Assembly (NCBI GenBank): GCA_028697455.1
Contig: JAQVEZ010000001.1
Span: forward strand, 67,902-131,901
DNA length: 64,000 nt
Source: Minisyncoccota bacterium
GTDB taxonomy: Bacteria > Patescibacteriota > Minisyncoccia > Phycocordibacterales > UBA1006
Direction: 5' to 3'
How positions within the stretch are numbered: the stretch's first letter is position 1; every line of letters begins with the position of its first letter. The position numbers and the translations under genes are program-made. Below, piece after piece: positions 1,057 to 54,534 of the stretch. Under the pieces are notes generated by a model. The model ran no database searches. It saw only the letters and a list, made by a program, of their open reading frames with translations, and was not told the origin of the DNA.

Positions 1057-2304
1057 TTGTATACTGAATTTATGAACCTTAGCCAATACAAGAAAATAAC
1101 ACTACCACAAACACCGGGGGTTTATTTTTTTAAAAAAGGAAATACTATTTTATATATAGGAAAAGCAACGAATCTCGCCAATCGAACTAAAAGTTATTTT
1201 CAGGAAAACCTCATGGAAACACGAGGTCCCATTATTGCAAAAATGATAGAGGAGATTGATACTGTTGAGTGGAAAGAAACCGATTCGGTCCTCGAAGCTC
1301 TTATTCTTGAGTCTCACCTTATCAAACAACACCAGCCAGAATACAATACAAAAGAAAAAGATGATAAAAGTTATAACTACGTAGCAATAGGAAGTGAAGA
1401 TTTCCCAACAATTTCAATTCTTCGCGGGAAGGAACTTCTTCTTACACAATCTAAAAAAGAAAATAAATTTCTCTATACTTTTGGCCCTTTTCCACATAGG
1501 GACCAGCTTCAAGTTGCTCTGGGAATTTTGAGAAAAATTTTCCCTTTTTATTCTCAAAAAACTATTAAAAAATACTCAAAAGAATTTTATCGACAACTTG
1601 GGTTGATTCCAAGCCCAGGAGAGACTGATCAAAATTTTAGAGAAGAGTATCGAAAGAATATTGATTATCTTGCTCTTTTTTTTGAAGGGAAAAAGAAATC
1701 AATCCTTCAAAAATTAAAAAAAGAAATGAACGAGGCAGCGCAGAATCTTCATTTTGAAAAAGCGATGATTCGAAAACGTCAAATCGATGCGCTTGTACAT
1801 ATTCAAGATATTGCTCTCTTAAAACGAGATTTTGATTCCGTTTCTTATTTCCAGGAGTTTCGTATGGAGGCTTACGATATTGCTCATACCGAAGGGAAGT
1901 CAATGATTGGTGTTATGGTGGTTCATAATGGACGCGATTTTCGCTCAGATGAATATCGTGTTTTTAAAATAAAATCTCTCCAGAAAGCAAATGACACAGC
2001 AGCCCTTGCAGAAGTTTTGGAGAGACGGCTAGAACATAAGGAATGGCAATTTCCTACAATTATTATTGTCGACGGGGGTATCGCACAAAAACGTCGAGCA
2101 GAAAAAGTGCTGCGCGAACGAAATATAAAGATCCCTGTTATTGCTGTTGTTAAAGACGAGAGACACAAAGCAAAAGCCCTCCTTGGACAAAAAGGGCTTA
2201 TTCAAAAATATGAAAAAAGTATTATTGCAATTAATAATGAATCACACCGCTTTGCAATCTCTCAACATATCAAAAAACGATCAAAAGAGTTCTTACAAAG
2301 ATAA
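1057..2304 (+). CDS. uvrC: excinuclease ABC subunit C, compact form lacking the C-terminal (HhH)2 domain
   Basis: N-terminal GIY-YIG motif (PGVYFFKKGNTILYIGKATNLANRTKSYF...TRGPIIAKM...EALILESHLIKQHQPEYN). A UVR motif (LQKLKKEMNEAAQNLHFEKAMIRKRQIDAL). An RNase H-like endonuclease domain (YDIAHTEG...IIIVDGG...NESHRFAI). The protein is 415 aa and stops before any HhH region. Confidence 0.85.
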   Translation: MYTEFMNLSQYKKITLPQTPGVYFFKKGNTILYIGKATNLANRTKSYFQENLMETRGPIIAKMIEEIDTVEWKETDSVLEALILESHLIKQHQPEYNTKEKDDKSYNYVAIGSEDFPTISILRGKELLLTQSKKENKFLYTFGPFPHRDQLQVALGILRKIFPFYSQKTIKKYSKEFYRQLGLIPSPGETDQNFREEYRKNIDYLALFFEGKKKSILQKLKKEMNEAAQNLHFEKAMIRKRQIDALVHIQDIALLKRDFDSVSYFQEFRMEAYDIAHTEGKSMIGVMVVHNGRDFRSDEYRVFKIKSLQKANDTAALAEVLERRLEHKEWQFPTIIIVDGGIAQKRRAEKVLRERNIKIPVIAVVKDERHKAKALLGQKGLIQKYEKSIIAINNESHRFAISQHIKKRSKEFLQR

Positions 2305-6420: not shown

Positions 6421-6552
6421 ATGGTAGAAAATGGACAACATTGGCTTCACACAGGACATGGAGCTAACTGGCTAAGGTCTGAATATGGTCAAGCATGGTT
6501 AAGATCCGATGCTGGAAAGAAATGGATGAACGCTCCAAAAGAACTTCTTTGA
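6421..6552 (+). CDS. putative 43-aa Trp-repeat peptide (WLxSxxGxx nonapeptide repeats)
   Basis: MVENGQHWLHTGHGANWLRSEYGQAWLRSDAGKKWMNAPKELL. The underlying DNA has degenerate 27-nt and 64-nt tandem repeats. A terminator hairpin follows at 6578-6606. Confidence 0.25.
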   Translation: MVENGQHWLHTGHGANWLRSEYGQAWLRSDAGKKWMNAPKELL

Positions 6553-6577
6553 TTTCTCAAAGATTTAACAAAGAAAA

Positions 6578-6606
6578 AGCCGAAACCCTCGTTTTGGCTT
6601 TTTGTA
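6578..6606 (+). terminator. rho-independent terminator
   Basis: AGCCGAAAC cctc GTTTTGGCT followed by TTTTT. Confidence 0.5.
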
Positions 6607-6793
6607 TTCACTCTTCACAAATAGTATCCTTGCAAATAAACTATTCTTGTGGTAATGTCTTAAATAAAGGTAGTCTTGTAGCTTGAGAGATTTTCTCAAA
6701 AGAGCTGAACGAAATTCTTAAAATCTTTCTCTTATTTGAGAAAAACAGAATGGATTGAGACACCCAAGAGTTCTTTTTTAAATGAACTTAAAC

Positions 6794-6828
6794 CCCTCGG
6801 CACAAAATGCCGAGGTTTTTTATTTTTT
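6794..6828 (+). terminator. rho-independent terminator
   Basis: CCTCGGCA caaaa TGCCGAGG followed by TTTTTTATTTTTT. Confidence 0.55.
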
Positions 6829-6963
6829 GAAAAAACAGGAGACTTCTTAACCATAAGAGTCAAAAGTATATTGTTTTGCCACAACGGAAACAGGATAAGA
6901 GATATTATTAAAATGAGTTAATTTTATAAAAACCTAGAATAAATATTCTAGGTTTTTATGTAT

Positions 6964-7048
6964 TGGTGCCCAGGGCGGGACTTGAACCCGCACGCTCTAG
7001 GAGCCACGGCCCTCAACCGTGTGTGTATACCAATTCCACCACCTGGGC
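6964..7048 (-). tRNA. tRNA-Leu(GAG)
   Basis: Acceptor GCCCAGG/CCUGGGC, anticodon loop UUGAGGG, long variable arm hairpin GCUC/GAGC, T-loop UUCAAGU. CCA is encoded. Confidence 0.9.
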
Positions 7049-15122: not shown

Positions 15123-16454
15123 TTATAACAATTCTCTTGCTTTTTGGATACGACTGAGAGATTCTTTCTTTCCAAGAACAAAAAGTAAAGTAAAGGGATC
15201 TGGAGATTTTTCCTGTCCTGATAGAGCGTAGCGGAGTGGCCAGAGCACATCACCCTTCCCTTCTTGTTCTGCGTAAGGGAAGATGAGCTCCTTGAGGGCG
15301 TCGTTATTCCACTCAGCAGAATAGTTTTCAATTAATTGAGAAACTTTTTCCAAATGTTTTTGGGTTGTTTCTGCAGGATTTTCTTTCCAGGAGATTTTTT
15401 CTTTATTGAGTTCTGGGGAGTTGAAATAATACCCAAGCTCATTTTTTTCAATCATTTCTCTTACCCCGTCAAAATCATCAACCCGTTCTTTTATAATAGG
15501 GATAATTTTTTTAAAAATTTCTTGATTAAAATTTGGAATTTTTTGGAACTCAACTTCAAGAGGTTTAAGATAATTTTCAAACTCATCAAGAGAGTATCTA
15601 TTGAGATATTGTTTGTTAATCCATTTGAGCTTTTCAATATTGAAAACTCCCCCACCCTTTTGAACTTTATTAAGGTCAAATTCCTTGATCAGTTCTTCTT
15701 TTGAGAGAATCTCTCGTTCGTCTCCTGGATTCCATCCGATAAAAGCCATAAAGTTAATCAGTGCTTCTGGGAGAATTCCCTTGTCTTTGTATTCTAAAGT
15801 TGGAACGACTTCGGGGTCACGTTTTGATAGCTTTCCTCCACGAGGGCTCATAATGAGAGGAATATGAGCGTATTGAGGTCTCGAAAAACCAAGTGCTTCA
15901 AGGATAAGAATTTGTCGTGAGGTGTTGTTGATGTGTTCTTGCCCTCGGATAATGTGAGTAACACCCATAAGCCCATCGTCAACAACAACAGTGAGGTGAT
16001 AGACTGGGAGATTAATCGTTCGAGCAATGACAAAATCTCCAAGTTCGGTTGTATCAAATTCTATGTCTCCCAGGATAAGGTCTTTGAAGGAGATTTTTTT
16101 ATTGGGATTTTTGAAACGAATAACGGCCTGTTGAGAATCTTCTTTTGAAGGTTCTGCTTCATAGGCGTGCCCCGAGCTAATGAGCTGTTTGATATGTTTT
16201 TGATAAATAGCTGTCCGTTCAGATTGTCGATAAAATTCATCAAAATCAAGTCCGAGCCACTTAAGAGAATCGAGCATGTTATCTTCATATTCTTGTTTTG
16301 AGCGTTCTTTGTCGGTATCTTCACTTCGGATAATAAAAGTTCCCTTGTGCTGTCGTGCAAAAAGGTAGTTGAACAAGGTCGTTCGTACTGATCCAATATG
16401 GAATTTTCCCGTAGGTGAGGGTGCCATACGAGTAACAATTTTGTTCTCATTCAT
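15123..16454 (-). CDS. gltX: glutamyl-tRNA synthetase
   Basis: PSPTGKFHIGSVRTTLFNYLFARQHKGTFIIRSEDTD (HIGH motif) and the KLSKR region. Confidence 0.9.
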   Translation of the reverse strand: MNENKIVTRMAPSPTGKFHIGSVRTTLFNYLFARQHKGTFIIRSEDTDKERSKQEYEDNMLDSLKWLGLDFDEFYRQSERTAIYQKHIKQLISSGHAYEAEPSKEDSQQAVIRFKNPNKKISFKDLILGDIEFDTTELGDFVIARTINLPVYHLTVVVDDGLMGVTHIIRGQEHINNTSRQILILEALGFSRPQYAHIPLIMSPRGGKLSKRDPEVVPTLEYKDKGILPEALINFMAFIGWNPGDEREILSKEELIKEFDLNKVQKGGGVFNIEKLKWINKQYLNRYSLDEFENYLKPLEVEFQKIPNFNQEIFKKIIPIIKERVDDFDGVREMIEKNELGYYFNSPELNKEKISWKENPAETTQKHLEKVSQLIENYSAEWNNDALKELIFPYAEQEGKGDVLWPLRYALSGQEKSPDPFTLLFVLGKKESLSRIQKARELL

Positions 16455-21839: not shown

Positions 21840-23261
21840 TTATTTTTTAGGTAATTCCTTGAGACTGAGATTAAGCTCATCAAGTTGCTCTTTGGCAATA
21901 AAGGACGGTGAATCCATCATAGGATCTCTCCCCTCTCCATTCTTTGGAAAGGCAATGAGCTCTCGAATGGTTTTTTCGTTTTGGAGAATCATCATTAACC
22001 GATCAAATCCCCACGCGATTCCTCCGTGCGGTGGTGTTCCAGAACCAAGGGCCTTGAGCATGTGCCCAAAATTTGCTTCTATTTTTTTGTCACTATGTCC
22101 AAGAATTTGTAAAATTGATTTCAAAATCTCAGGATCATGAGCTCGAATTGAGCCTCCTCCGATTTCATATCCATTCAACACGATGTCGTATTGAGCTGCG
22201 ATAATATCTGCAATATTGGTCTTGTTTTTGATATTTTCAATGTGTTCTGGTTTAGATAATGAAAACGGATTGTGAGTAAAGGTCCATTCTCCTATTGCTT
22301 GAGGGTCATCAGAAGTTGCTGTCTTTTCAAAAAATGGGAAATCCACAACCCAACAAAAGGCAAGGAGATTGGGATCATCTTTGTCTTCACGAATATCAGG
22401 ACGGTCACTTCCATATTTTTCCATAGCCTCAGCATATGGAATACGTGGAAATGGAATTTGTTGGATACGTTTTTCTGGATAGAGTTTGCGTACGATATTA
22501 ATCAACATATTTTCATTGAGCTCCATAATGTCATCCTCATTCACGAAAGACATTTCCATATCCAATTGAGTAAATTCTGGCTGACGATCTCCTCGTAAAT
22601 CCTCATCTCGCATACAGCGAGCAAATTGGAAATAACGTTCCATTCCTCCAGCCATCAAGAGCTGTTTATATTGTTGTGGGGACTGTGGCAGTGCGTAAAA
22701 TTGATGAGGTGAGAGTCGTGCTGGAACAACATAATCTCGTGCTCCTTCTGGGGTTGATTTTGTCAAAATTGGCGTTTCGATTTCGAGAAAGCCTTGATCG
22801 TCCAAATAATCACGACACAATTTTGCAACACGATGACGCATCATGATATTGTTGTGCATTCGCTCGGTTCGCAGATCAAGGTAGCGGTTTTTGATACGAA
22901 CTTCTTCATTAATATCTACTGTTGATTCAGTGATTTCAAAGACTGGAGTTTCTGCTTTGTTCAAAATTTCAATACCGGTAATTTCTATTTCTACATTACC
23001 ATTTTGAACGCCTTCTTTGACCATTTTTTCGGGTCTCTGGTTTACTATTCCGGTTATGGCTACCACCCATTCTGGTCGCAAGGTTTTTGCAATTTCAAGA
23101 ACGTCTGGTTTTCCAAAAACAACTCCTTGAACTTTTCCTGTGGCATCACGAAAATCAAAGAACGCCATTTTCCCTTGATCTCGAGCTACATCAACCCACC
23201 CCTCAATACGAATCGTTTCGGTGATATGTTGTGCTATGTTTTTTATTAATGTTCGTTTCAT
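21840..23261 (-). CDS. aspS: aspartyl-tRNA synthetase (short form without the large bacterial GAD insertion)
   Basis: N-terminal OB fold, then class II motifs FFDFRD ... QFARCMRDEDLRGDRQPEFTQLDMEMSF ... GGGSIR. The protein is 473 aa. Confidence 0.9.
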   Translation of the reverse strand: MKRTLIKNIAQHITETIRIEGWVDVARDQGKMAFFDFRDATGKVQGVVFGKPDVLEIAKTLRPEWVVAITGIVNQRPEKMVKEGVQNGNVEIEITGIEILNKAETPVFEITESTVDINEEVRIKNRYLDLRTERMHNNIMMRHRVAKLCRDYLDDQGFLEIETPILTKSTPEGARDYVVPARLSPHQFYALPQSPQQYKQLLMAGGMERYFQFARCMRDEDLRGDRQPEFTQLDMEMSFVNEDDIMELNENMLINIVRKLYPEKRIQQIPFPRIPYAEAMEKYGSDRPDIREDKDDPNLLAFCWVVDFPFFEKTATSDDPQAIGEWTFTHNPFSLSKPEHIENIKNKTNIADIIAAQYDIVLNGYEIGGGSIRAHDPEILKSILQILGHSDKKIEANFGHMLKALGSGTPPHGGIAWGFDRLMMILQNEKTIRELIAFPKNGEGRDPMMDSPSFIAKEQLDELNLSLKELPKK

Positions 23262-23276
23262 ATATTGTTTTAATTA

Positions 23277-24167
23277 TTAATCTTCAATGAAAAAATCTTC
23301 ATCAATTTCTTTTATAGAAAAAGTTTCCTTAATTTGAACTCCTAAATTATATTTAATCATTAGGTCTACTAATTTATCACCATTGATTAATATAATTTTA
23401 TGATTTCTTGCATCCCTTACTTTTTCTAAGGCTGCCTTATCAAAATCTGAAGTAGTAACAAAAATTCCTTTTGAGACATCACCAGACATTGCTCCAATAA
23501 AATTACGGATTTCTTTTTCTCCCACAAGGTTTGCTGTATATCTTTTTGCCTGAGTATAAATTCTCTCAACCCCTAAAGCATCTTGATTGATAATCCCATC
23601 AATTCCACCATCCCCAGATTTTTTTGTTTCTTGAAAATCTCCATAACCCATTTTTTGAAAAAGTTTTAAAATTATCTTTTCAAAATAATATGGATTTGAA
23701 ACTTTTAATTTTTCCAATAATTCAATTTTTAAATTCTCTTCAATATCAGCATATCCAACTTCAATCATTTCTTGAGATGACAAATCAGTGACTTTTATAT
23801 TTTCGTTATTTTCAGATTTTTTATTTTTTTGATATTTTTGAAAATCGAAATCATTTTGTATATATTCTTTTGTTAAATTTATCCCCTCCTTAAGAATATT
23901 TAATCCTTTATCGGTAATTTTTACATATCCTCTTTCTGGATAATCAACCATTTTTGCTACACGTAATTTTGATTTTGCGAAATGAATACGATTAAGTAAT
24001 GTATTGTCACCATTTTTTGGATTAACTCTATTTAAAACTTCTTCTGGCAAATGTGAATAAAAAGTATCTCTTACTTTTTCTTCAAGGTCTTTTCTGTGTA
24101 AAGTTTCTCCATTACTCAAAATCTTAAGTACTGGGATATATATTTCGTGGTATTTTGGCATTTCCAT
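23277..24167 (-). CDS. mrr: Mrr-like type IV (modification-dependent) restriction endonuclease
   Basis: An Mrr_N winged helix (PKYHEIYIPVLKIL...NRIHFAKSKL). An Mrr_cat domain (YYFEKIILKLFQKMGY...SGDGGIDGII...YTQAKRY...KGIFVTTSDF...LVDLMIKYNLGV) that aligns closely with E. coli Mrr. The track ORF begins at a TTG codon inside the T-box terminator, so the first ATG (MEMPKYHEI) is preferred. Confidence 0.85.
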   Translation of the reverse strand: MEMPKYHEIYIPVLKILSNGETLHRKDLEEKVRDTFYSHLPEEVLNRVNPKNGDNTLLNRIHFAKSKLRVAKMVDYPERGYVKITDKGLNILKEGINLTKEYIQNDFDFQKYQKNKKSENNENIKVTDLSSQEMIEVGYADIEENLKIELLEKLKVSNPYYFEKIILKLFQKMGYGDFQETKKSGDGGIDGIINQDALGVERIYTQAKRYTANLVGEKEIRNFIGAMSGDVSKGIFVTTSDFDKAALEKVRDARNHKIILINGDKLVDLMIKYNLGVQIKETFSIKEIDEDFFIED

Positions 24168-24189
24168 AATATTTTTATATTCTATTTGC

Positions 24190-24395
24190 AAACAAAAAAT
24201 CGTCCGCAATCGATTAACTTATAATCTCTTGCAGGGACGATTTTGGATAACCGCGGTGCCACCCTGATTCCTGATGTGTATCAAGCGCTCTTTATTATTA
24301 GTCCAAAAATATCCTTAGACTTAATTTTTCACCTCAGCTGTGTCAAAGCGTCGTTGGTACATAAAATATAACAAAAATAAGCAAAAAAGAAAAGA
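24190..24395 (-). promoter_or_regulatory. T-box riboswitch leader (likely Asp-specific) upstream of mrr-aspS
   Basis: On the minus strand, AGGGUGGCACCGCGG at 24251-24265 matches the T-box consensus AGGGUGGNACCGCG exactly. The variable position C would pair with G73 of tRNA-Asp. A terminator helix AAAATCGTCC(CTGCAA)...(TTGC)GGACGATTTT with a U-tract follows at 24196-24244. Upstream there is a short stem I-like helix containing GGACUAA (GAC is an Asp codon). Confidence 0.55.
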
Positions 24396-24405
24396 TAGCA
24401 AAAAG

Positions 24406-24615
24406 CTATCTTTCTTTATAATTTTTATACATATCGGAGTTATCATTTCCAGAATAGAGATCATCAACTTCTTCCTTTGTTAAACCGAAACCATCAACGT
24501 CTTTTGGCTTCTCTGTGCCTGTTGGCTTTTGTTCTTGTTCTTGCTTTGGAGAAGAATTTTTACTTTCTGAATCCTTTTTTACTCTTTCTTCTTTTTGTGG
24601 TTTAAAATTTTCCAT
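24406..24615 (-). CDS. small acidic, low-complexity protein, unknown function
   Basis: A 69-aa K/E/S/D-rich protein on the same strand, downstream of the two paralogs. Confidence 0.4.
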   Translation of the reverse strand: MENFKPQKEERVKKDSESKNSSPKQEQEQKPTGTEKPKDVDGFGLTKEEVDDLYSGNDNSDMYKNYKER

Positions 24616-24672
24616 AATAATATTGTTTCTTATTTAATTTATTATAAATCATTTTTTAAATTAAAAAAGTGG

Positions 24673-25152
24673 CTATATGCCACTTTCTCTTTTTTCCAGC
24701 TCTTCTCTTATAAGACTCGCTACTTCGTAATCCTCATCCTCGAGTACTTTTTGAAGCTTGGTCTGAAGTTTCTTTTTGGAATAATAAGGAATGTCTTTTG
24801 CTTCAAATAGAGCCTCGGTATCAATGATTAAAAAGTTGTGGGTAGAAAGTTTTATAAACCCAGGGTGATCCTCAAGAGAATCATACATCTCATCAAAGAG
24901 TATTACTTCGTACTCTTCAAAGTAATCCCCAAAATCAAAAAAGTATGTCCCTTCTTCTCCGAGTTCTGCTGTGCCCAAATATGCCTCTTCTAAAAAATCA
25001 CCTTTGTTTTCTGAAACAAGAAGAAATTTTGGAATAAAAATATTCTTGAGCGTAATGATGATACTCTGAACATCAAAAAAGACTTTTGAACCTTGCTGTA
25101 TTCCGCCAAGAGTATTCTCGGGGAAAAAACCTTGAATTTTTATAGTGCTCAT
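24673..25152 (-). CDS. uncharacterised protein with C-terminal UVR-like motif (paralog 1)
   Basis: Shares TIKxxG...NIFIP(K/R)(F/Y)L and a C-terminal LQKVLEDEDYEVASLIREELEKRE with the adjacent gene. The C-terminal 30 aa resemble the UvrB/UvrC UVR motif. Confidence 0.6.
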   Translation of the reverse strand: MSTIKIQGFFPENTLGGIQQGSKVFFDVQSIIITLKNIFIPKFLLVSENKGDFLEEAYLGTAELGEEGTYFFDFGDYFEEYEVILFDEMYDSLEDHPGFIKLSTHNFLIIDTEALFEAKDIPYYSKKKLQTKLQKVLEDEDYEVASLIREELEKRESGI

Positions 25153-25209
25153 GATTAGATTGTATTTTTATATAAAAATAGCATAAAAATTCAATTTAAA
25201 AAAGCAGGT

Positions 25210-25701
25210 CTAATGACCCGCTCTGTTTTTTTTGAGTTTTTTAAGTTCATCCCTCACCATCGCTGCATAATCATAGTCTTCGTCTTGCAGGGCTTTCTCA
25301 AGGTCGTGCTCAAGGGTTTCAATTTCTTTTTCTTCAATTCTCGCCTCGTGATAGTATTGGATCTCATATTCTTTTCTTGGGACAGTGATATACATCCCAG
25401 ATCTGAAGAGTTTTGGTTCAATATCTTCAGTAAAGATAGGTTGATAACCTAATTTTTCAATTCCTTCAAAAAAGACACTAAACGAACCCGAACTATCTTT
25501 TGTTACGGCAATGGTTGCTGGAGCCCCTTCAAAAGTTTGGTAAAGTGCTTCAGGTGAAGTAAATACCCCAAGATATCTTGGTATGAAGATATTATTGTTT
25601 GTGATAATAACATGACTATACAAACAATACCTTGTAGTATTTGCCTCCATTGTTTCGAGGGTCTCTCCTGTATACCATCCTTTTATTGTTAGCATTTTCA
25701 A
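25210..25701 (-). CDS. uncharacterised protein with C-terminal UVR-like motif (paralog 2)
   Basis: Homologous to 24673-25152 (TIKGWYTGETL...NIFIPRYL ... LEKALQDEDYDYAAMVRDELKKLKK). Confidence 0.6.
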   Translation of the reverse strand: MKMLTIKGWYTGETLETMEANTTRYCLYSHVIITNNNIFIPRYLGVFTSPEALYQTFEGAPATIAVTKDSSGSFSVFFEGIEKLGYQPIFTEDIEPKLFRSGMYITVPRKEYEIQYYHEARIEEKEIETLEHDLEKALQDEDYDYAAMVRDELKKLKKNRAGH

Positions 25702-25768
25702 TTTAGTTTTTTTGTATTATATAACGTATTTAAAAAAAATAAAGAGGTTTCTCTTTATTTTTTAGTTT

Positions 25769-26158
25769 TTATTTATTTCTTTTTCTAAAAATAGCAAGGA
25801 GAATTCCTCCGACCACAAGGGCAGAAAGAGCGTCTATAATGTTTTGTTGGTGTCGGTTCTTGAATTGATACCTTTGTTGTTCTCTATTTCGTTTGATACA
25901 GCTTTGAATTTCTTCTGGGTTTTGTTCCACGATCTCCCCTGCCCTTTCGGTTTCTGATAATGGTTGAGGAGTTAGTTTACTATAAGGATAGACACACTCT
26001 TGTTCTGTGAAATAGGAATAAGGATCTTCTTGGAAGAAAGCAAGCTTGAGCGATGAACTTATGAGCATAATTCCTCCTACGGAAGAGATGATAATTCCTG
26101 CTGCAAAAGCAAGGATGGGAATGAGTCGAGTAATCCAGTGAGTTGTGTTTTCTGACAT
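25769..26158 (-). CDS. hypothetical two-TM membrane protein
   Basis: TM helices at both termini with a soluble middle region. A terminator hairpin (ATAAAGAG/CTCTTTAT plus U-run) follows on the minus strand. Confidence 0.45.
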   Translation of the reverse strand: MSENTTHWITRLIPILAFAAGIIISSVGGIMLISSSLKLAFFQEDPYSYFTEQECVYPYSKLTPQPLSETERAGEIVEQNPEEIQSCIKRNREQQRYQFKNRHQQNIIDALSALVVGGILLAIFRKRNK

Positions 26159-26185: not shown

Positions 26186-27160
26186 TTAAAGTCCTACTTT
26201 TTCTCTTACTTCTTTCATCTTTGCGCGGACAATGGCTTGTATCTTTTGTCTCCCTTCATCCAAGATTTGGCGAACGATTCCTGGGTTTTCTTCATAATAT
26301 TTTCTTTTCTCACGCATTGGGGTGATAAAAGCAAGATAATTTTCCAAAAGCATTTTTTTAGAATCTCCGTATCCAAGACCTCCCTCAAGATATCCTTTTC
26401 TGATTTCCGAAAGCTGAGGCTCTGGGGTTATCAGCTTATGAATAGCAAATACATTACATTCTTCTGGGTTTTTGGGTTCAGATGGTTCTTTGCTATCAGT
26501 TACGATACTCATGATAGCTTTCTTGATTTCAGCATCAGTTCCAAAAAGAGGAATAATGTTGCCATATGATTTTGACATTTTTTGCCCATCCGTTCCTGGA
26601 ATAATGGCAAGTTCTTCTCTGATAGCTTCGGTTGGTTCCTTGAAAGTTTCTCCGTATTGGGCGTTGAATTTTCTCACAAGTTCACGTGTCATTTCAACAT
26701 GTTGCACCTGGTCTTTACCGACAGGAACAAGGTCTGCATTAGGGAGAACAATATCTGCAGCCATAAGTACCGGATAGTTAAAGAGCCCAACAGTTGCTTC
26801 AATTCCTTTTGTTGTCCTGTCTTTGAAAGCATGAGCTCGCTCAAGCCATGGCATTGTTACAAGACAGTCAAATATCCACATGAGTTCAGTGACTTCTGGA
26901 ATATCAGATTGTTTGTAGAGGATTACCTTTTCTGGATCAAGTCCAATAGCGAGATAGTCCAAAATTAAATCATAACTTTGTTCACGAAGTGTTTTCCCGC
27001 TGGTGACTGTCGTAAGAGCATGATAATCAGCCACAAAAACATAGAGATTAAAGGTATCTTGCATATTCACAAATTCACGCATTGCTCCAAAGTAATTTCC
27101 AATATGTGGGCGCCCTGTAGGCTTGATAGCTGAAAGTGCTGTTTTCTTCTTTTCATTCAT
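26186..27160 (-). CDS. trpS: tryptophanyl-tRNA synthetase
   Basis: GRPHIGNYFG (HIGH-type motif) and KMSKSYGN (KMSKS motif). The protein is 324 aa. Confidence 0.9.
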   Translation of the reverse strand: MNEKKKTALSAIKPTGRPHIGNYFGAMREFVNMQDTFNLYVFVADYHALTTVTSGKTLREQSYDLILDYLAIGLDPEKVILYKQSDIPEVTELMWIFDCLVTMPWLERAHAFKDRTTKGIEATVGLFNYPVLMAADIVLPNADLVPVGKDQVQHVEMTRELVRKFNAQYGETFKEPTEAIREELAIIPGTDGQKMSKSYGNIIPLFGTDAEIKKAIMSIVTDSKEPSEPKNPEECNVFAIHKLITPEPQLSEIRKGYLEGGLGYGDSKKMLLENYLAFITPMREKRKYYEENPGIVRQILDEGRQKIQAIVRAKMKEVREKVGL

Positions 27161-44533: not shown

Positions 44534-47074
44534 CTAAATAACTATATTAAATATTTTATCCTCTTTGTAAATGATTTTCTTGATTTCTTTTCCTGAAACC
44601 CATTTTTTGACCTCGTCTTGTGTAAGTACAAGATCAGTAATTTCTTTTTCAGAAATTCCTTTTTTAACCTTAATAAAGGCACGATTCTTCCCATTGATTT
44701 GGATAGGGAGAGTTTTTTCATCGTCCGCAAGAAATCTTTCATTGTATTGCGGAAACGATGATTGGTGAATAGAGGTATCTTCAAAACTATTCCATAATTC
44801 TTCAGTAATATGCGGTGCTATTGGTGCTAATAGCTGCAAAAAGATCTTATACTCCCCTTCCCCTATTTTTTCAAGTTTTTCAGCTTGGTTTAATAAGGTC
44901 ATTAATTGTGAAATTGCTGTATTGAATTTAAGTCTTTCAAGGTCTTCGGAAACTTTTTTAATTGTTTGATGAAGAGATTTAACGAAGAGTTCTTCTGATG
45001 GTTCCTTTGAAACTTTTTCTCTAAGTCTCCACACCCGTTCAAGAAATCGTTTGACCCCAACAACGCCATTTGGATCCCAGGGGTAATTTCCAGGCTCATT
45101 AAAAGGACCAATGAAGGCAAGATACATTCGAACGGCGTCTGCACCGACAAAAGACACAACTTCATCTGGGTCGATAACGTTTCCTTTTGATTTTGACATT
45201 TTTTGCCCGTCAGGGCCGAGGATAAGTCCGCGATTAGAGCGACCTTCATAAGCTTCAGAATGAGGAACGAGTCCTAGGGAGTGAAGTGCTTTTACCCAAA
45301 ATCGTGAGTAGAGTAAGTGCATGGTAGTGTGTTCTGAACCTCCAAAGTACAGAGATATTGGCATCCATTGCTTTATAAAATCTTCTTTTGCAAAGATATC
45401 TTGGTTTTTATTATCAAGGTAACGATAAAAATACCACGATGAATCAACAAAAGTATCCATAGTATCAACTTCTGGAGTCCAGCCTTTCCCAAAAATATTT
45501 TCTGTTCGTTCTCGAAGCTCCTGCGAACGAGCAAGAGGCGCTGTTCCATCGGGAGTATAATCAACATCCGTTGGAAGTTGCCATGGTAAATGCTCAAGGG
45601 GAATGGAGTGAGGGAGTCCTTCGGGATCATACACAATAGGGATAGGCGTTCCCCAGTATCGCTGTCTTGACACTCCCCAATCTCGTAATCGATATGTTTT
45701 CGTAAGAGTTCCTCCTACTGCTTTGGTAATTTTTACTCGTGCCTCCTCTGAACTCAGTCCATTAAATTCACCTGAATGAATAAGTCGCCCTTCAAAAGAA
45801 CATGCGACTCTCTTCCCTTTTGGAAGAAGTCCGTCCTTATCGTGTTCAATAATATCGTAAAAAGCATGCCACTCGGCATTTATTTGTTTTTGACCTTTTT
45901 CTTCATGAGCTCCTGCTTCTAAAATAGAGACATTTTCTCCTGAGGTTATAAGGGGGCGTGAATGACCTATTTCTCCCGCAGATGGAAGAATAACAAACTG
46001 AAAAGGGAGGTCGTGAGTAAGGGCAAATTCCGCATCTCTCTCATCATGAGCAGGAACAGCCATAACTGCTCCTGTTCCAAATCCTGCGAGTACATAGTCA
46101 GCAATCCATACTTCAATAGGTTTTTTTGTTGCAGGATTAATTGCAGTAATGCCTTCCAAGCGTACTCCGGTTTTTTCCTTTGTTTGCTGACGATCGCGCT
46201 CCGATTTTTTTGCAACGGATTGAACATAATTCTCAACTTCCGCCCAATTTGTAATCTGTTCTTTCCATTTTTGGATTTTTTTATGTTCAGGAGCGAGAAC
46301 AATATACGTCACACCAAACAAAGTATCAGCACGAGTTGTAAAGACTTCAAGATTCTCATTTTTTTGAATTTCAAAAGGAATAAGACTTCCCTCCTTACGT
46401 CCGATCCACTCTCGTTGAGCTTGTTTGATTGATTCGTCCCAATTAAGTTTCTCAAGATCATCAATTAAAGGATCTGCAAATTTGGTGATACGGAGCATCC
46501 ATTGAGCCATATCCTTTTGTATAACCTCACTACCGCAGCGTTCACATTTTCCAGCAATGACCTGTTCGTTTGCAAGAATTGTTTTACACTGTTCGCACCA
46601 ATTAACCTTGGTAATATCCCGATAGACAAGATCGTTTTCAAAAAACTGAGTAAACATCCATTGTGTCCAGCGATAAAACTCAGGTTCCGAGGTGATGATT
46701 TCTCGTGACCAATCAAAGCTCGCCCCCATACTCTTGAGCTGATTGCGCATATAATCAATGTTCCCGTACGTCCATTCTTTTGGGTCGAGCCCGCGTTTGA
46801 TTGCCGCATTCTCAGCAGGTAAACCAAAAGAATCAAAACCAATTGGATACAGAACGTTGTATCCTTGCATCCGTTTTAATCGTGCATAGATATCAGGCAT
46901 AGCAAAGGCATACCAATGCCCAACATGAAGATTCCCTGACGGATATGGGAACTCAGAAAGAAGATACATATTTTCTGCACCGTCTTTACTTTCTGGTGTT
47001 GTATAGATACCTTGTTTCTCCCATGTATCTTGCCATTTCTTTTCTATTTCTTTCGGATTATATTCGTGTGACAT
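44534..47074 (-). CDS. leuS: leucyl-tRNA synthetase
   Basis: PYPSGNLHVGHWYAFAMPD (HIGH motif), KMSKSKGN (KMSKS motif), and the editing domain. The start is set at MSHEYNPKEIEKKWQ. Confidence 0.95.
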   Translation of the reverse strand: MSHEYNPKEIEKKWQDTWEKQGIYTTPESKDGAENMYLLSEFPYPSGNLHVGHWYAFAMPDIYARLKRMQGYNVLYPIGFDSFGLPAENAAIKRGLDPKEWTYGNIDYMRNQLKSMGASFDWSREIITSEPEFYRWTQWMFTQFFENDLVYRDITKVNWCEQCKTILANEQVIAGKCERCGSEVIQKDMAQWMLRITKFADPLIDDLEKLNWDESIKQAQREWIGRKEGSLIPFEIQKNENLEVFTTRADTLFGVTYIVLAPEHKKIQKWKEQITNWAEVENYVQSVAKKSERDRQQTKEKTGVRLEGITAINPATKKPIEVWIADYVLAGFGTGAVMAVPAHDERDAEFALTHDLPFQFVILPSAGEIGHSRPLITSGENVSILEAGAHEEKGQKQINAEWHAFYDIIEHDKDGLLPKGKRVACSFEGRLIHSGEFNGLSSEEARVKITKAVGGTLTKTYRLRDWGVSRQRYWGTPIPIVYDPEGLPHSIPLEHLPWQLPTDVDYTPDGTAPLARSQELRERTENIFGKGWTPEVDTMDTFVDSSWYFYRYLDNKNQDIFAKEDFIKQWMPISLYFGGSEHTTMHLLYSRFWVKALHSLGLVPHSEAYEGRSNRGLILGPDGQKMSKSKGNVIDPDEVVSFVGADAVRMYLAFIGPFNEPGNYPWDPNGVVGVKRFLERVWRLREKVSKEPSEELFVKSLHQTIKKVSEDLERLKFNTAISQLMTLLNQAEKLEKIGEGEYKIFLQLLAPIAPHITEELWNSFEDTSIHQSSFPQYNERFLADDEKTLPIQINGKNRAFIKVKKGISEKEITDLVLTQDEVKKWVSGKEIKKIIYKEDKIFNIVI

Positions 47075-47160
47075 AGTTTTTATAGTACAATAAATAGAAA
47101 TTTTTTCAAAAAGAAAAGCCCACAAATGAGGGCTTTAATGTTCTTTGTTTTGTTCTTAAC

Positions 47161-53023: not shown

Positions 53024-54490
53024 CTATTTTTCTCGAACAATAGGAAACAAAATCACATCCCTCAAATTCCTCTGCTCTGTCAAAATAGCAACGATACGAT
53101 CAATTCCCATCCCAAAACCAGTCATCGGCGGCATCCCATGCTCCATGGCGGTGAGGAAACGCTCATCAACTTCCATAGCTTCATCATCTCCACCTTCTTT
53201 GAGAGATGCCTGGTGTTCGAGTAGCTCTCTTTGCCTCAAGGGATTAACAAGCTCAGCATACTGATTAGTAATTTCTGCCCCCGCAATAATCAACTGAGCA
53301 ACACGAGCTGTTCCATCTGGATTTTGTTGTGCGAGGGGTTTGAGATCTCCAGGATAATCAATAACAAAAGTCGGATGAATAATATGATTACGCGAAGATT
53401 TTTTATAAATAAAATCAAGAAGATTTGCTTTACCCGTTTTATTGATTTCAGATATGTCCATGCCGTACTCTCGCGCCTTCTCTTTTATCTCATCGAGACT
53501 TGCACTAAAGATATCAAGATGGGCATTTTCAAGAACAAGACTTGCAAAAGTTTTCCGTTCCCATGTTTTATCAAAATCAACTTCAACATCATTACCATCT
53601 TTATCTTGAACAATGAATACTGATTTCCCAACAATATCTTTCGCAAGGTGTTTTAAGAGTTCTTCGGTCCATGCCATATTGGTTTCAAGTGATTCGTAGG
53701 CGGCATACCATTCAATCATAGTAAACTCCTGAATATGAGTCGGGTCTGATCCTTCGTTTCTAAAGTTTTTAGCAATTTCATAAACTCGAGGATATCCTCC
53801 AGCCATTATCATCTTATGTTCAAGCTCAAGAGAGATTCGCAAAACCATATCCATATCGAGATCGTTATGATGAGTGTTAAAGGTTTTTGCCATTGCCCCT
53901 CCTGCTTGGTTTTGCAAAATAGGTGTTTCAATTTCAAGAAAACCTCGTGAGTCAAAGAATTTTCGTATTGCAGAAATAATTTTTGAGCGAGTTCTAAACC
54001 TCTCAAAAGATTCTGGATTGCTCAAAAGATCCAAATAGCGTTTTCGATAAATCTCATCAATGTCTTGAAGACCTGAGTGTTTATCTGGGAGAGGAAGAAG
54101 GGCTTTCCCCGCCATCTTCCAATCATCTGCAAGAAGACTCTGTGCCCCTCGCTGAGTTACAAAGAGCTCCCCAGAAAACCAAAGAAAATCTCCAATATCA
54201 ACCGTATCAAGGAAAAGATTAAAAAGGTTCTCATCAAGAGAGTCTTTTTTGAGAACCACCTGAAAAGATCCCGTTCCATCATTAAGAGTAATAAAGTTTA
54301 TCGCGCCAGCACTCCGAAGAGAAAGAACTCGCCCAGCAACACTGGTATGAGACCCTTCTTGGAAATTTTTAAGAACTTCTTCAAGACTTTGCTTGCGAGT
54401 TACTTCAGAAGGAAAAGCAGGCATGCCATGAGCTTCGAGTTTTTGTAATTTTTCATTTCGTACTGAACGTAGTTCTTCAAGAGATGCCAT
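53024..54490 (-). CDS. lysS: lysyl-tRNA synthetase (class II)
   Basis: N-terminal OB fold, then class II motifs FRNEG ... GGAMA ... GMGIDRIV. The start is set at MASLEELRS. Confidence 0.95.
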   Translation of the reverse strand: MASLEELRSVRNEKLQKLEAHGMPAFPSEVTRKQSLEEVLKNFQEGSHTSVAGRVLSLRSAGAINFITLNDGTGSFQVVLKKDSLDENLFNLFLDTVDIGDFLWFSGELFVTQRGAQSLLADDWKMAGKALLPLPDKHSGLQDIDEIYRKRYLDLLSNPESFERFRTRSKIISAIRKFFDSRGFLEIETPILQNQAGGAMAKTFNTHHNDLDMDMVLRISLELEHKMIMAGGYPRVYEIAKNFRNEGSDPTHIQEFTMIEWYAAYESLETNMAWTEELLKHLAKDIVGKSVFIVQDKDGNDVEVDFDKTWERKTFASLVLENAHLDIFSASLDEIKEKAREYGMDISEINKTGKANLLDFIYKKSSRNHIIHPTFVIDYPGDLKPLAQQNPDGTARVAQLIIAGAEITNQYAELVNPLRQRELLEHQASLKEGGDDEAMEVDERFLTAMEHGMPPMTGFGMGIDRIVAILTEQRNLRDVILFPIVREK

Positions 54491-54534
54491 ATAGATTACA
54501 GTATAAAGCAAAGACCTTAATATTCAAGGTTTTT

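Follow-up and report, generated by a model that had tools for sequence, protein, structure and literature searches.

Two diverged tandem genes with a putative UVR hairpin

We analyzed a 64-kb stretch of DNA (the window, taken at its full length) from a metagenome-assembled genome (MAG) of Candidatus Pacebacteria/Paceibacterota, a member of the candidate phyla radiation (CPR), and focused on three small genes, here called A, B and C, that lie between trpS and aspS beside an mrr restriction gene. By their sequences A and B are genuine, if distant, paralogs, each pairing an N-terminal domain (N-domain) that is close to an orphan with a predicted C-terminal helical hairpin of the UVR type. The A/B family is part of a stable trpS-aspS backbone and does not belong to the adjacent Mrr restriction gene. 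At a probability that we put at roughly 40%, A and B may be non-enzymatic adaptor-like proteins whose hairpins would mediate self-pairing, A-B pairing or docking on a further UVR protein.

Direct comparison of A and B by BLASTP gave an end-to-end alignment with 26% identity and 47% positives (E = 2e-8, single comparison). The block I-I-T-x-x-N-I-F-I-P-x-x-L was invariant across A and B orthologues, and over all eight sequences the only invariant columns were M1, T14, F74, L129, E140 and A145. An earlier sequence-only reading of this DNA had proposed the paralogy, a shared N-terminal block and UVR-like C-termini, and each of these proposals agrees with the data presented here. AlphaFold2 models of both proteins, built from 7-sequence alignments, were of moderate confidence, with a predicted local distance difference test score (pLDDT) of 75.9 for A and 73.0 for B and a predicted template modelling score of 0.54-0.55. 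Both models followed a common plan of a beta-rich N-domain and then a two-helix hairpin. All family members are acidic, with an isoelectric point (pI) of 4.4-5.0.

The C-terminal segments were examined against the Pfam UVR profile (PF02151; gathering score 21.5 bits). This analysis revealed a match in five of the seven family members (best E = 4.9e-9); A scored 21.8 bits, above the cut-off, and B scored 12.5 bits, below it. NCBIfam aligned the same stretch to the coiled-coil region of McsA and to the UVR motif of UvrB/UvrC, and phmmer aligned it with the crystallised C-terminal peptide of UvrB, with retention of the F/Y-E-x-A-A-x-h-R-D pattern. In the models the hairpin helices spanned residues 115-137 and 141-159 of A (pLDDT 83-93) and residues 126-138 and 142-156 of B (pLDDT 77-89). 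When Foldseek superposed the hairpin of the A model on the Staphylococcus aureus ClpC M-domain, 39 residues were aligned (31% identity) with a root-mean-square deviation (rmsd) of 0.6-0.8 Å; against the UvrB C-terminal domain (1e52) the rmsd was 1.1 Å. As judged from its profile matches, the A/B family belongs to the broad class of UVR motif-containing proteins, and its modelled hairpin has a fold like that of the UvrB C-terminal domain.

The N-domain was modelled as six or seven strands plus short helices over approximately residues 10-110. In A it carries a net charge of -4, compared with -10 to -20 elsewhere in the family, and alignment of the family sequences revealed no conserved grouping of Cys, His, Asp or Lys residues. 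A role as an enzyme or in nucleic-acid binding is disfavoured because of this acidic charge and the absence of a conserved catalytic-type constellation. No credible match to the N-domain was found in the Pfam, NCBIfam, PHROGs, PADLOC or PDB sequence profiles; a weak DUF7934 match was confined to the hairpin. Searches of PDB sequences with A and with the N-domain profile returned UVR peptides only, plus a non-significant LnaB segment (E = 0.04), and for neither model did Foldseek find an N-domain match in the PDB at E < 0.3. Foldseek rows for Mop/ModG and a LOV2-DARPin were rejected at an rmsd of 9-17 Å. In the BFVD collection, the N-domain model of A displayed a borderline fold likeness to three uncharacterised actinophage proteins. 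The best of these was U5PXJ5 of Clavibacter phage CN1A (E = 1.4e-3, target-normalised TM-score 0.66, rmsd 2.9 Å, 95 aligned columns), and the others were A0A1I9SAK7 of Rhodococcus phage Weasels2 and A0A6G5YFK0; none of the three had sequence similarity to the N-domain. Taken together, these searches suggest that the N-domain is close to an orphan and lineage-specific, in keeping with the earlier statement that it matched nothing recognisable.

A tentative adaptor role and its closest rivals

In the role that we favour, A and B would be tandem copies, since diverged, of a cytoplasmic protein that is small, acidic and non-enzymatic. The beta-rich acidic N-domain would provide a specific binding surface, probably as a protein-binding module, and the UVR hairpin would provide a helical pairing surface, most likely as in UvrB/UvrC, McsA and the ClpC M-domain. 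The UVR domain of UvrB binds the homologous domain of UvrC (PMC8889267), the coiled-coil domain of McsA drives reassembly of the McsAB oligomer (PMC11046695), and head-to-head pairing of ClpC M-domains in the resting state is described in a further report (PMC12583610). A and B could likewise pair with self or each other through their hairpins and/or dock on another UVR-bearing protein. We infer the pairing and docking mechanism, the adaptor role and the partner's identity from these analogies. Two distant genomes carry a second copy in tandem, as would suit a protein that acts in oligomeric form.

A possible docking partner is UvrC, the only other UVR-bearing open reading frame (ORF) found by Pfam in the window. 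A small UVR hidden Markov model applied to ORFs from all six frames of the window detected A and B only, and missed the UvrC UVR motif that Pfam found. This UvrC-like protein (1057-2304, plus strand) is short, with 415 residues that comprise a GIY-YIG domain, a UVR motif (27 bits) and an RNase H-like endonuclease domain; a helix-hairpin-helix domain was not reported in the Pfam scan.

Several observations weigh against the adaptor proposal. The N-domain was assigned no fold, so its description as a binding module rests on missing catalytic residues, and the UVR segment of B lies under the Pfam cut-off. In one relative (locus L001, assembly SRR28106885) a frameshift in the B copy (6544-7023) replaces the UVR hairpin, giving a protein of 146 aa (P0006); in the near-identical assembly L002, B is intact at 159 aa. 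The frameshift is either a mistake of assembly or the beginning of hairpin loss, and the hairpin may be dispensable or the L001 copy may be decaying. The synteny described below is also drawn from a narrow clade with generally conserved gene order and has little bearing on function.

A second reading of the hairpin sees in A and B adaptors or regulators, similar to McsA or ClpF, that act on a ClpC-type AAA+ unfoldase or kinase, with the hairpin docking on the M-domain and the N-domain bringing or sensing substrates. The top structural matches of the hairpin were indeed ClpC M-domains, the proteins are McsA-like in size and layout, and McsA was the best NCBIfam match (E = 5e-5 over the coiled-coil region), with a Foldseek probability of 0.57 for McsA structure 8wtb_B. 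Plant UVR-domain proteins are also strongly enriched among ClpC1 interactors (PMC8889267). However, the McsA score was 23 bits against a cut-off of 210, and the zinc-coordinating CxxC motifs of a zinc finger were absent, with 0-3 Cys per family member and none conserved; identity with McsA was rejected on these grounds. Neither the window nor the gene surroundings examined in relatives contained clpC, mcsB or clpP, and ctsR was likewise absent from the neighbourhood. We regard a Clp-directed role as unlikely.

A bolder extension of the adaptor proposal would make the N-domain a new fold and A and B a CPR-specific heterodimeric adaptor, with hairpins that insert into the UvrB-UvrC handover, or into the M-domain of an Hsp100-type protein, in a symbiont with a reduced genome. 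This extension is speculative and we hold it to be distinctly improbable; if true, it would add a new regulatory layer to excision repair or proteostasis in Patescibacteria, possibly with the pair acting as an acidic decoy.

The family keeps its place between trpS and aspS

To place the family in its genomic context, gene order was compared in five independent assemblies. The order was the same in all: SpoU methylase, trpS, a small membrane protein, the family gene(s), a T-box leader, a variable slot, aspS, scpA, scpB and mraY. The stretch from trpS to aspS was preserved in L001-L006. In every case trpS lies on one side of the family and the T-box leader of aspS on the other, and in each of the five genomes the T-box model begins within the last family gene or just behind it. 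These positions could point to a function tied to the flanking aminoacyl-tRNA synthetases, for example as a factor acting on trpS/aspS expression or on the T-box leader. We consider such a role very unlikely: the proteins are acidic and unlikely to bind RNA, each gene has its own terminator-like hairpin, and adjacency is little informative in one narrow clade with conserved gene order.

The sequence-only reading had proposed that the trio forms an accessory or defence-associated module linked to the neighbouring restriction gene. In this view A, B and C would serve the adjacent Mrr type IV enzyme as accessory or regulator, oppose it as an anti-restriction partner, or form a defence module of another kind. 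The reading also named a regulatory pair, an idea that the present data neither favour nor disfavour. The trio directly adjoins mrr in the window, the adjacent slot holds defence-type genes in two genomes (Mrr in the window and PDC-S18 in L001), and the proteins are small and acidic, like DNA mimics. In contrast, the slot gene changes from genome to genome (a PDC-S18/DUF5655 candidate nuclease gene, an unknown 201-aa protein, a 113-aa membrane ORF or none) while the family remains, and the Mrr_cat gene of L006 is located elsewhere, four genes away. In every genome the T-box leader stands between the family and the variable gene, which places them in different transcription units. PADLOC gave no match for A, B or C, nor for the L005 and L006 members, and no relatives were found in phage, IMG/VR or JGI collections. 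Defence-type genes thus come and go in the slot between the T-box leader and aspS, and the position of the A/B family is constant. The restriction or defence link is largely refuted by this synteny, and we regard it as extremely unlikely. A housekeeping assignment of the N-domain, together with conserved synteny unrelated to mrr, had been named as evidence that would speak against the link; the synteny was of that kind, and the N-domain could not be assigned to a known housekeeping family.

The main practical value of this result is negative, in that the A/B pair is not to be counted in a defence system. The truly variable defence-type element of the locus is the gene between the T-box leader and aspS. 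The inserted slot genes are packed against aspS, and defence-type genes thus appear to be controlled by a tRNA-sensing leader, which is an unusual arrangement.

A narrow distribution with a core copy and divergent second copies

We examined the distribution of the family with several searches. A HMMER profile of the N-domain alone, run exhaustively against 1.84 billion 50%-identity representatives, recovered four real clusters (A, B, P0007 and P0009), all from Paceibacterota; two further matches were rejected as tandem-repeat artefacts composed of 12-16 short stretches each. The full-length family profile gave six clusters among 5.8 billion sequences, and word-indexed homologue searches with A, B and the family profile gave just six real clusters. 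One locus was found in the GTDB species genomes, in the same Paceibacterota MAG as P0009. Locus scans of the JGI metagenomes and IMG/VR detected no family locus, tblastn searches of phage genomes returned nothing past weak hairpin matches, and a literature search on the UVR domain and Patescibacteria found no papers. The A/B family is restricted to a very small Paceibacterota clade and a handful of genomes, and this narrowness limits its general importance.

Comparison of B with the single copy of L005 gave 39-40% identity (E ~1e-31 to 1e-33), and comparison with the upstream copy of L006 gave 30% identity (E = 5e-17). By these alignments B is the core type and A the divergent one. A divergent second copy is present in L006 too; it has 174 aa and a UVR motif and is located downstream of the core copy, whereas A is upstream. 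Because they lie on opposite sides of the B-type copy in two distant genomes, the second copies probably either arose independently or evolve fast.

The extremely narrow distribution and the actinophage fold likeness (best E = 1.4e-3) could also suggest that A, B and C came in recently as mobile or phage-derived cargo and serve no core function, but this reading is disfavoured and has hardly any probability: the chromosomal position is fixed even in genomes where identity to the core B-type copy is no more than 25-40%, all three genes are under purifying selection (see below), the GC content of 0.33 resembles that of the surroundings (0.34-0.39 in adjoining 2-kb bins), sequence relatives are absent from the phage and IMG/VR collections, and the ORF list revealed no integrase, repeats or tRNA at the borders.

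Gene calls, coding status and transcription signals

The ORF list of the window contains A, B and C as three co-oriented minus-strand ORFs, at the positions claimed for them earlier (Table 1). To assess their coding status, the ratio of nonsynonymous to synonymous substitution rates (dN/dS; Nei-Gojobori) was calculated between the window and relatives at 84-90% protein identity. This gave 0.10-0.26 for A, 0.18-0.32 for B and 0.15-0.29 for C, with 0.05 for trpS as a comparison value. A, B and C are real genes under purifying selection.

Gene C was found in the closest relatives only (the 84-90% identity group) and is absent from L005 and L006; in L001 its reading frame is kept across a 3-nt indel. 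Its product consists of 25% D+E and 20% K+R, has a grand average of hydropathy of -1.97 and is probably disordered. The third gene had been described as encoding an acidic K/E/D-rich protein; the gene is real, its frame is conserved and the composition is as described, but its acidity is only mild (pI 5.0, net charge -3). The gene for the 129-aa membrane protein upstream of A has counterparts of 131-137 aa before the family in L001-L005 (dN/dS ~0.1), and a DUF2784 protein occupies its place in L006. The 129-aa protein had no match to any family.

Table 1. Features of the A/B/C locus in the window and of the variable slot in relatives (slot positions in relatives refer to their own loci)
Feature	Position	Strand	Size or residues	Remarks
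trpS	26186-27160			upstream of A
Membrane-protein gene	25769-26158	-	129 aa	two hydrophobic segments (N- and C-terminal); between trpS and A
Upstream boundary	25716-25756	-		weak hairpin AAAGAG-AAAC-CTCTTT (25741-25756) and T8, after the 129-aa membrane-protein gene
TATAAT box	25716-25721	-		21 nt before the ATG of A
Paralog A	25210-25695	-	161 aa	ATG at 25695 (NCBI start), alternative TTG start at 25701; MDD3693885.1, 'UvrB/UvrC motif-containing protein'
A N-terminal domain	25354-25695	-	~aa 1-114	beta-rich (predicted)
A hairpin	25219-25353	-	aa 115-159	Pfam UVR match at nt 25228-25332
Terminator-like hairpin and T-run	25201-25224	-		overlaps A stop codon; followed by -10-like TATAAA (25167-25172)
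Paralog B	24673-25152	-	159 aa	MDD3693884.1, hypothetical protein (NCBI)
B UVR-like segment	24691-24774	-	aa 127-154	below Pfam threshold; modelled as helical hairpin
Terminator-like hairpin and T6	24666-24686	-		overlaps B stop codon; followed by TATAAT (24641-24646)
Gene C	24406-24615	-	69 aa	K/E/D-rich
Hairpin and T-run	24390-24414	-		at C stop codon; aligned by the Rfam model as T-box start (stem I)
T-box leader of aspS	24230-24428	-		downstream of C; neighbour, outside the A/B/C module
mrr	23277-24209			Mrr_N and Mrr_cat (Pfam); PADLOC mREase_IV, 1.4e-50
aspS	21840-23261			downstream of mrr
NCBI proteins of the locus				MDD3693883-86; locus tags PHC89_00595-00610; Candidatus Pacebacteria/Paceibacterota (CPR) MAG
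Variable slot, window	23277-24428	-		Mrr; 15-nt gap to aspS
Variable slot, L001	7270-8461		312 aa	PD-(D/E)xK-like and DUF5655; PADLOC candidate PDC-S18 (3.7e-71); 4-nt overlap with aspS
Variable slot, L003	7269-8128		201 aa	unknown protein
Variable slot, L006	7994-8590		113 aa	membrane ORF; Mrr_cat gene four genes upstream instead
Variable slot, L005	3499-3753			no gene; T-box abuts aspS

The transcription signals of the locus were examined by a terminator scan and by direct inspection. The A-B and B-C spacers are 57 nt each, and each carries a conserved T-run hairpin and a -10-like box. The stem at the end of A is kept in relatives, where a G.U to A-U change preserves the pair; the stem at the end of B is palindromic and was listed by the scan on the plus strand, but its T-run is on the minus strand, and it is invariant in relatives. 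Terminator-like sites numbered 8 in a 4.1-kb region compared with 2.6 ± 1.9 in shuffles. The hairpin at the upstream boundary has fewer than three G-C pairs and was missed by the scan; it was read directly from the sequence. The trio had been described as a separate small operon with its own upstream terminator and TATAAT box. Both of these elements are present, but a single A-B-C unit was not established: with a hairpin and a -10-like box for each gene, the layout seems to fit three attenuated or separate units as well as one operon.

The T-box leader scored 44 bits (E = 3e-7), under the Rfam gathering score of 93, and carries a AGGGUGGCACCGCG box and a terminator. T-box matches of 47-48 bits were found directly after the last cluster gene in the four relatives tested. 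The Mrr assignment of the sequence-only reading was confirmed by the Mrr_N and Mrr_cat domains of the slot gene. Stem I was barely alignable, with 18 nt compared with 71 in the Rfam model, and the leader may be a reduced-stem-I variant. A GAC (Asp) codon followed by A was identified in the loop of a small hairpin in the leader (GCUUUGACACAGC, about 24325-24337). The window also contains a second class II (Asp/Lys/Asn-type) aminoacyl-tRNA synthetase gene (53024-54511, minus strand) in addition to aspS, and leuS (44534-47125), a gltX-type gene (15123-16454) and trpS lie in the same, mostly minus-strand co-linear array.

Comparison with known UVR systems

The C-terminal 35-40 residues of A and B match the UVR motif of UvrB/UvrC and are predicted to form the same helical hairpin. 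In contrast to UvrB and UvrC, A and B are about 160 aa long, carry an unrelated N-domain and have no helicase, GIY-YIG or RNase H-like domain. The hairpin nearest to theirs in structure and sequence is that of the ClpC M-domain; A and B differ from ClpC in that they have no AAA+ module and carry the hairpin C-terminal to an orphan domain.

Small proteins offer the closer likeness in layout. McsA (NF053706; 182 aa) combines a small N-terminal binding module with a C-terminal UVR-like coiled-coil hairpin, akin to the arrangement in A and B. Plant ClpF (UVR plus YccV) is likewise a small UVR-bearing adaptor, whereas A and B have no YccV domain. The commonest bacterial architecture with an N-domain and a C-terminal UVR is the BFN/DUF151 (PF02577) plus UVR type, represented by Thermotoga TM0160 and by plant BBD and UVR2-4, in which an N-domain of ~130 aa precedes a C-terminal UVR in proteins of 160-200 aa. 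A divergent BFN/DUF151 origin was rejected: PF02577 gave no match at E <= 1 in the seven members, and the PDB matches that Foldseek listed for the two models included no BFN structure. The motifs that we take to be hallmarks of BFN were not evident in the A/B family sequences.

As far as sequence comparison can tell, A and B are a clade-restricted variant of an already known design, a small N-module with a C-terminal UVR, and their membership in each of the named families fails on the N-domain. If the adaptor role that we favour is correct, the pair would be a clade-specific case of a recurring design in which a UVR hairpin is joined to a private binding domain, as in McsA, ClpF and BFN-UVR proteins, and it would provide a handle on the protein-protein wiring of Patescibacteria, in which most small proteins are unannotated.

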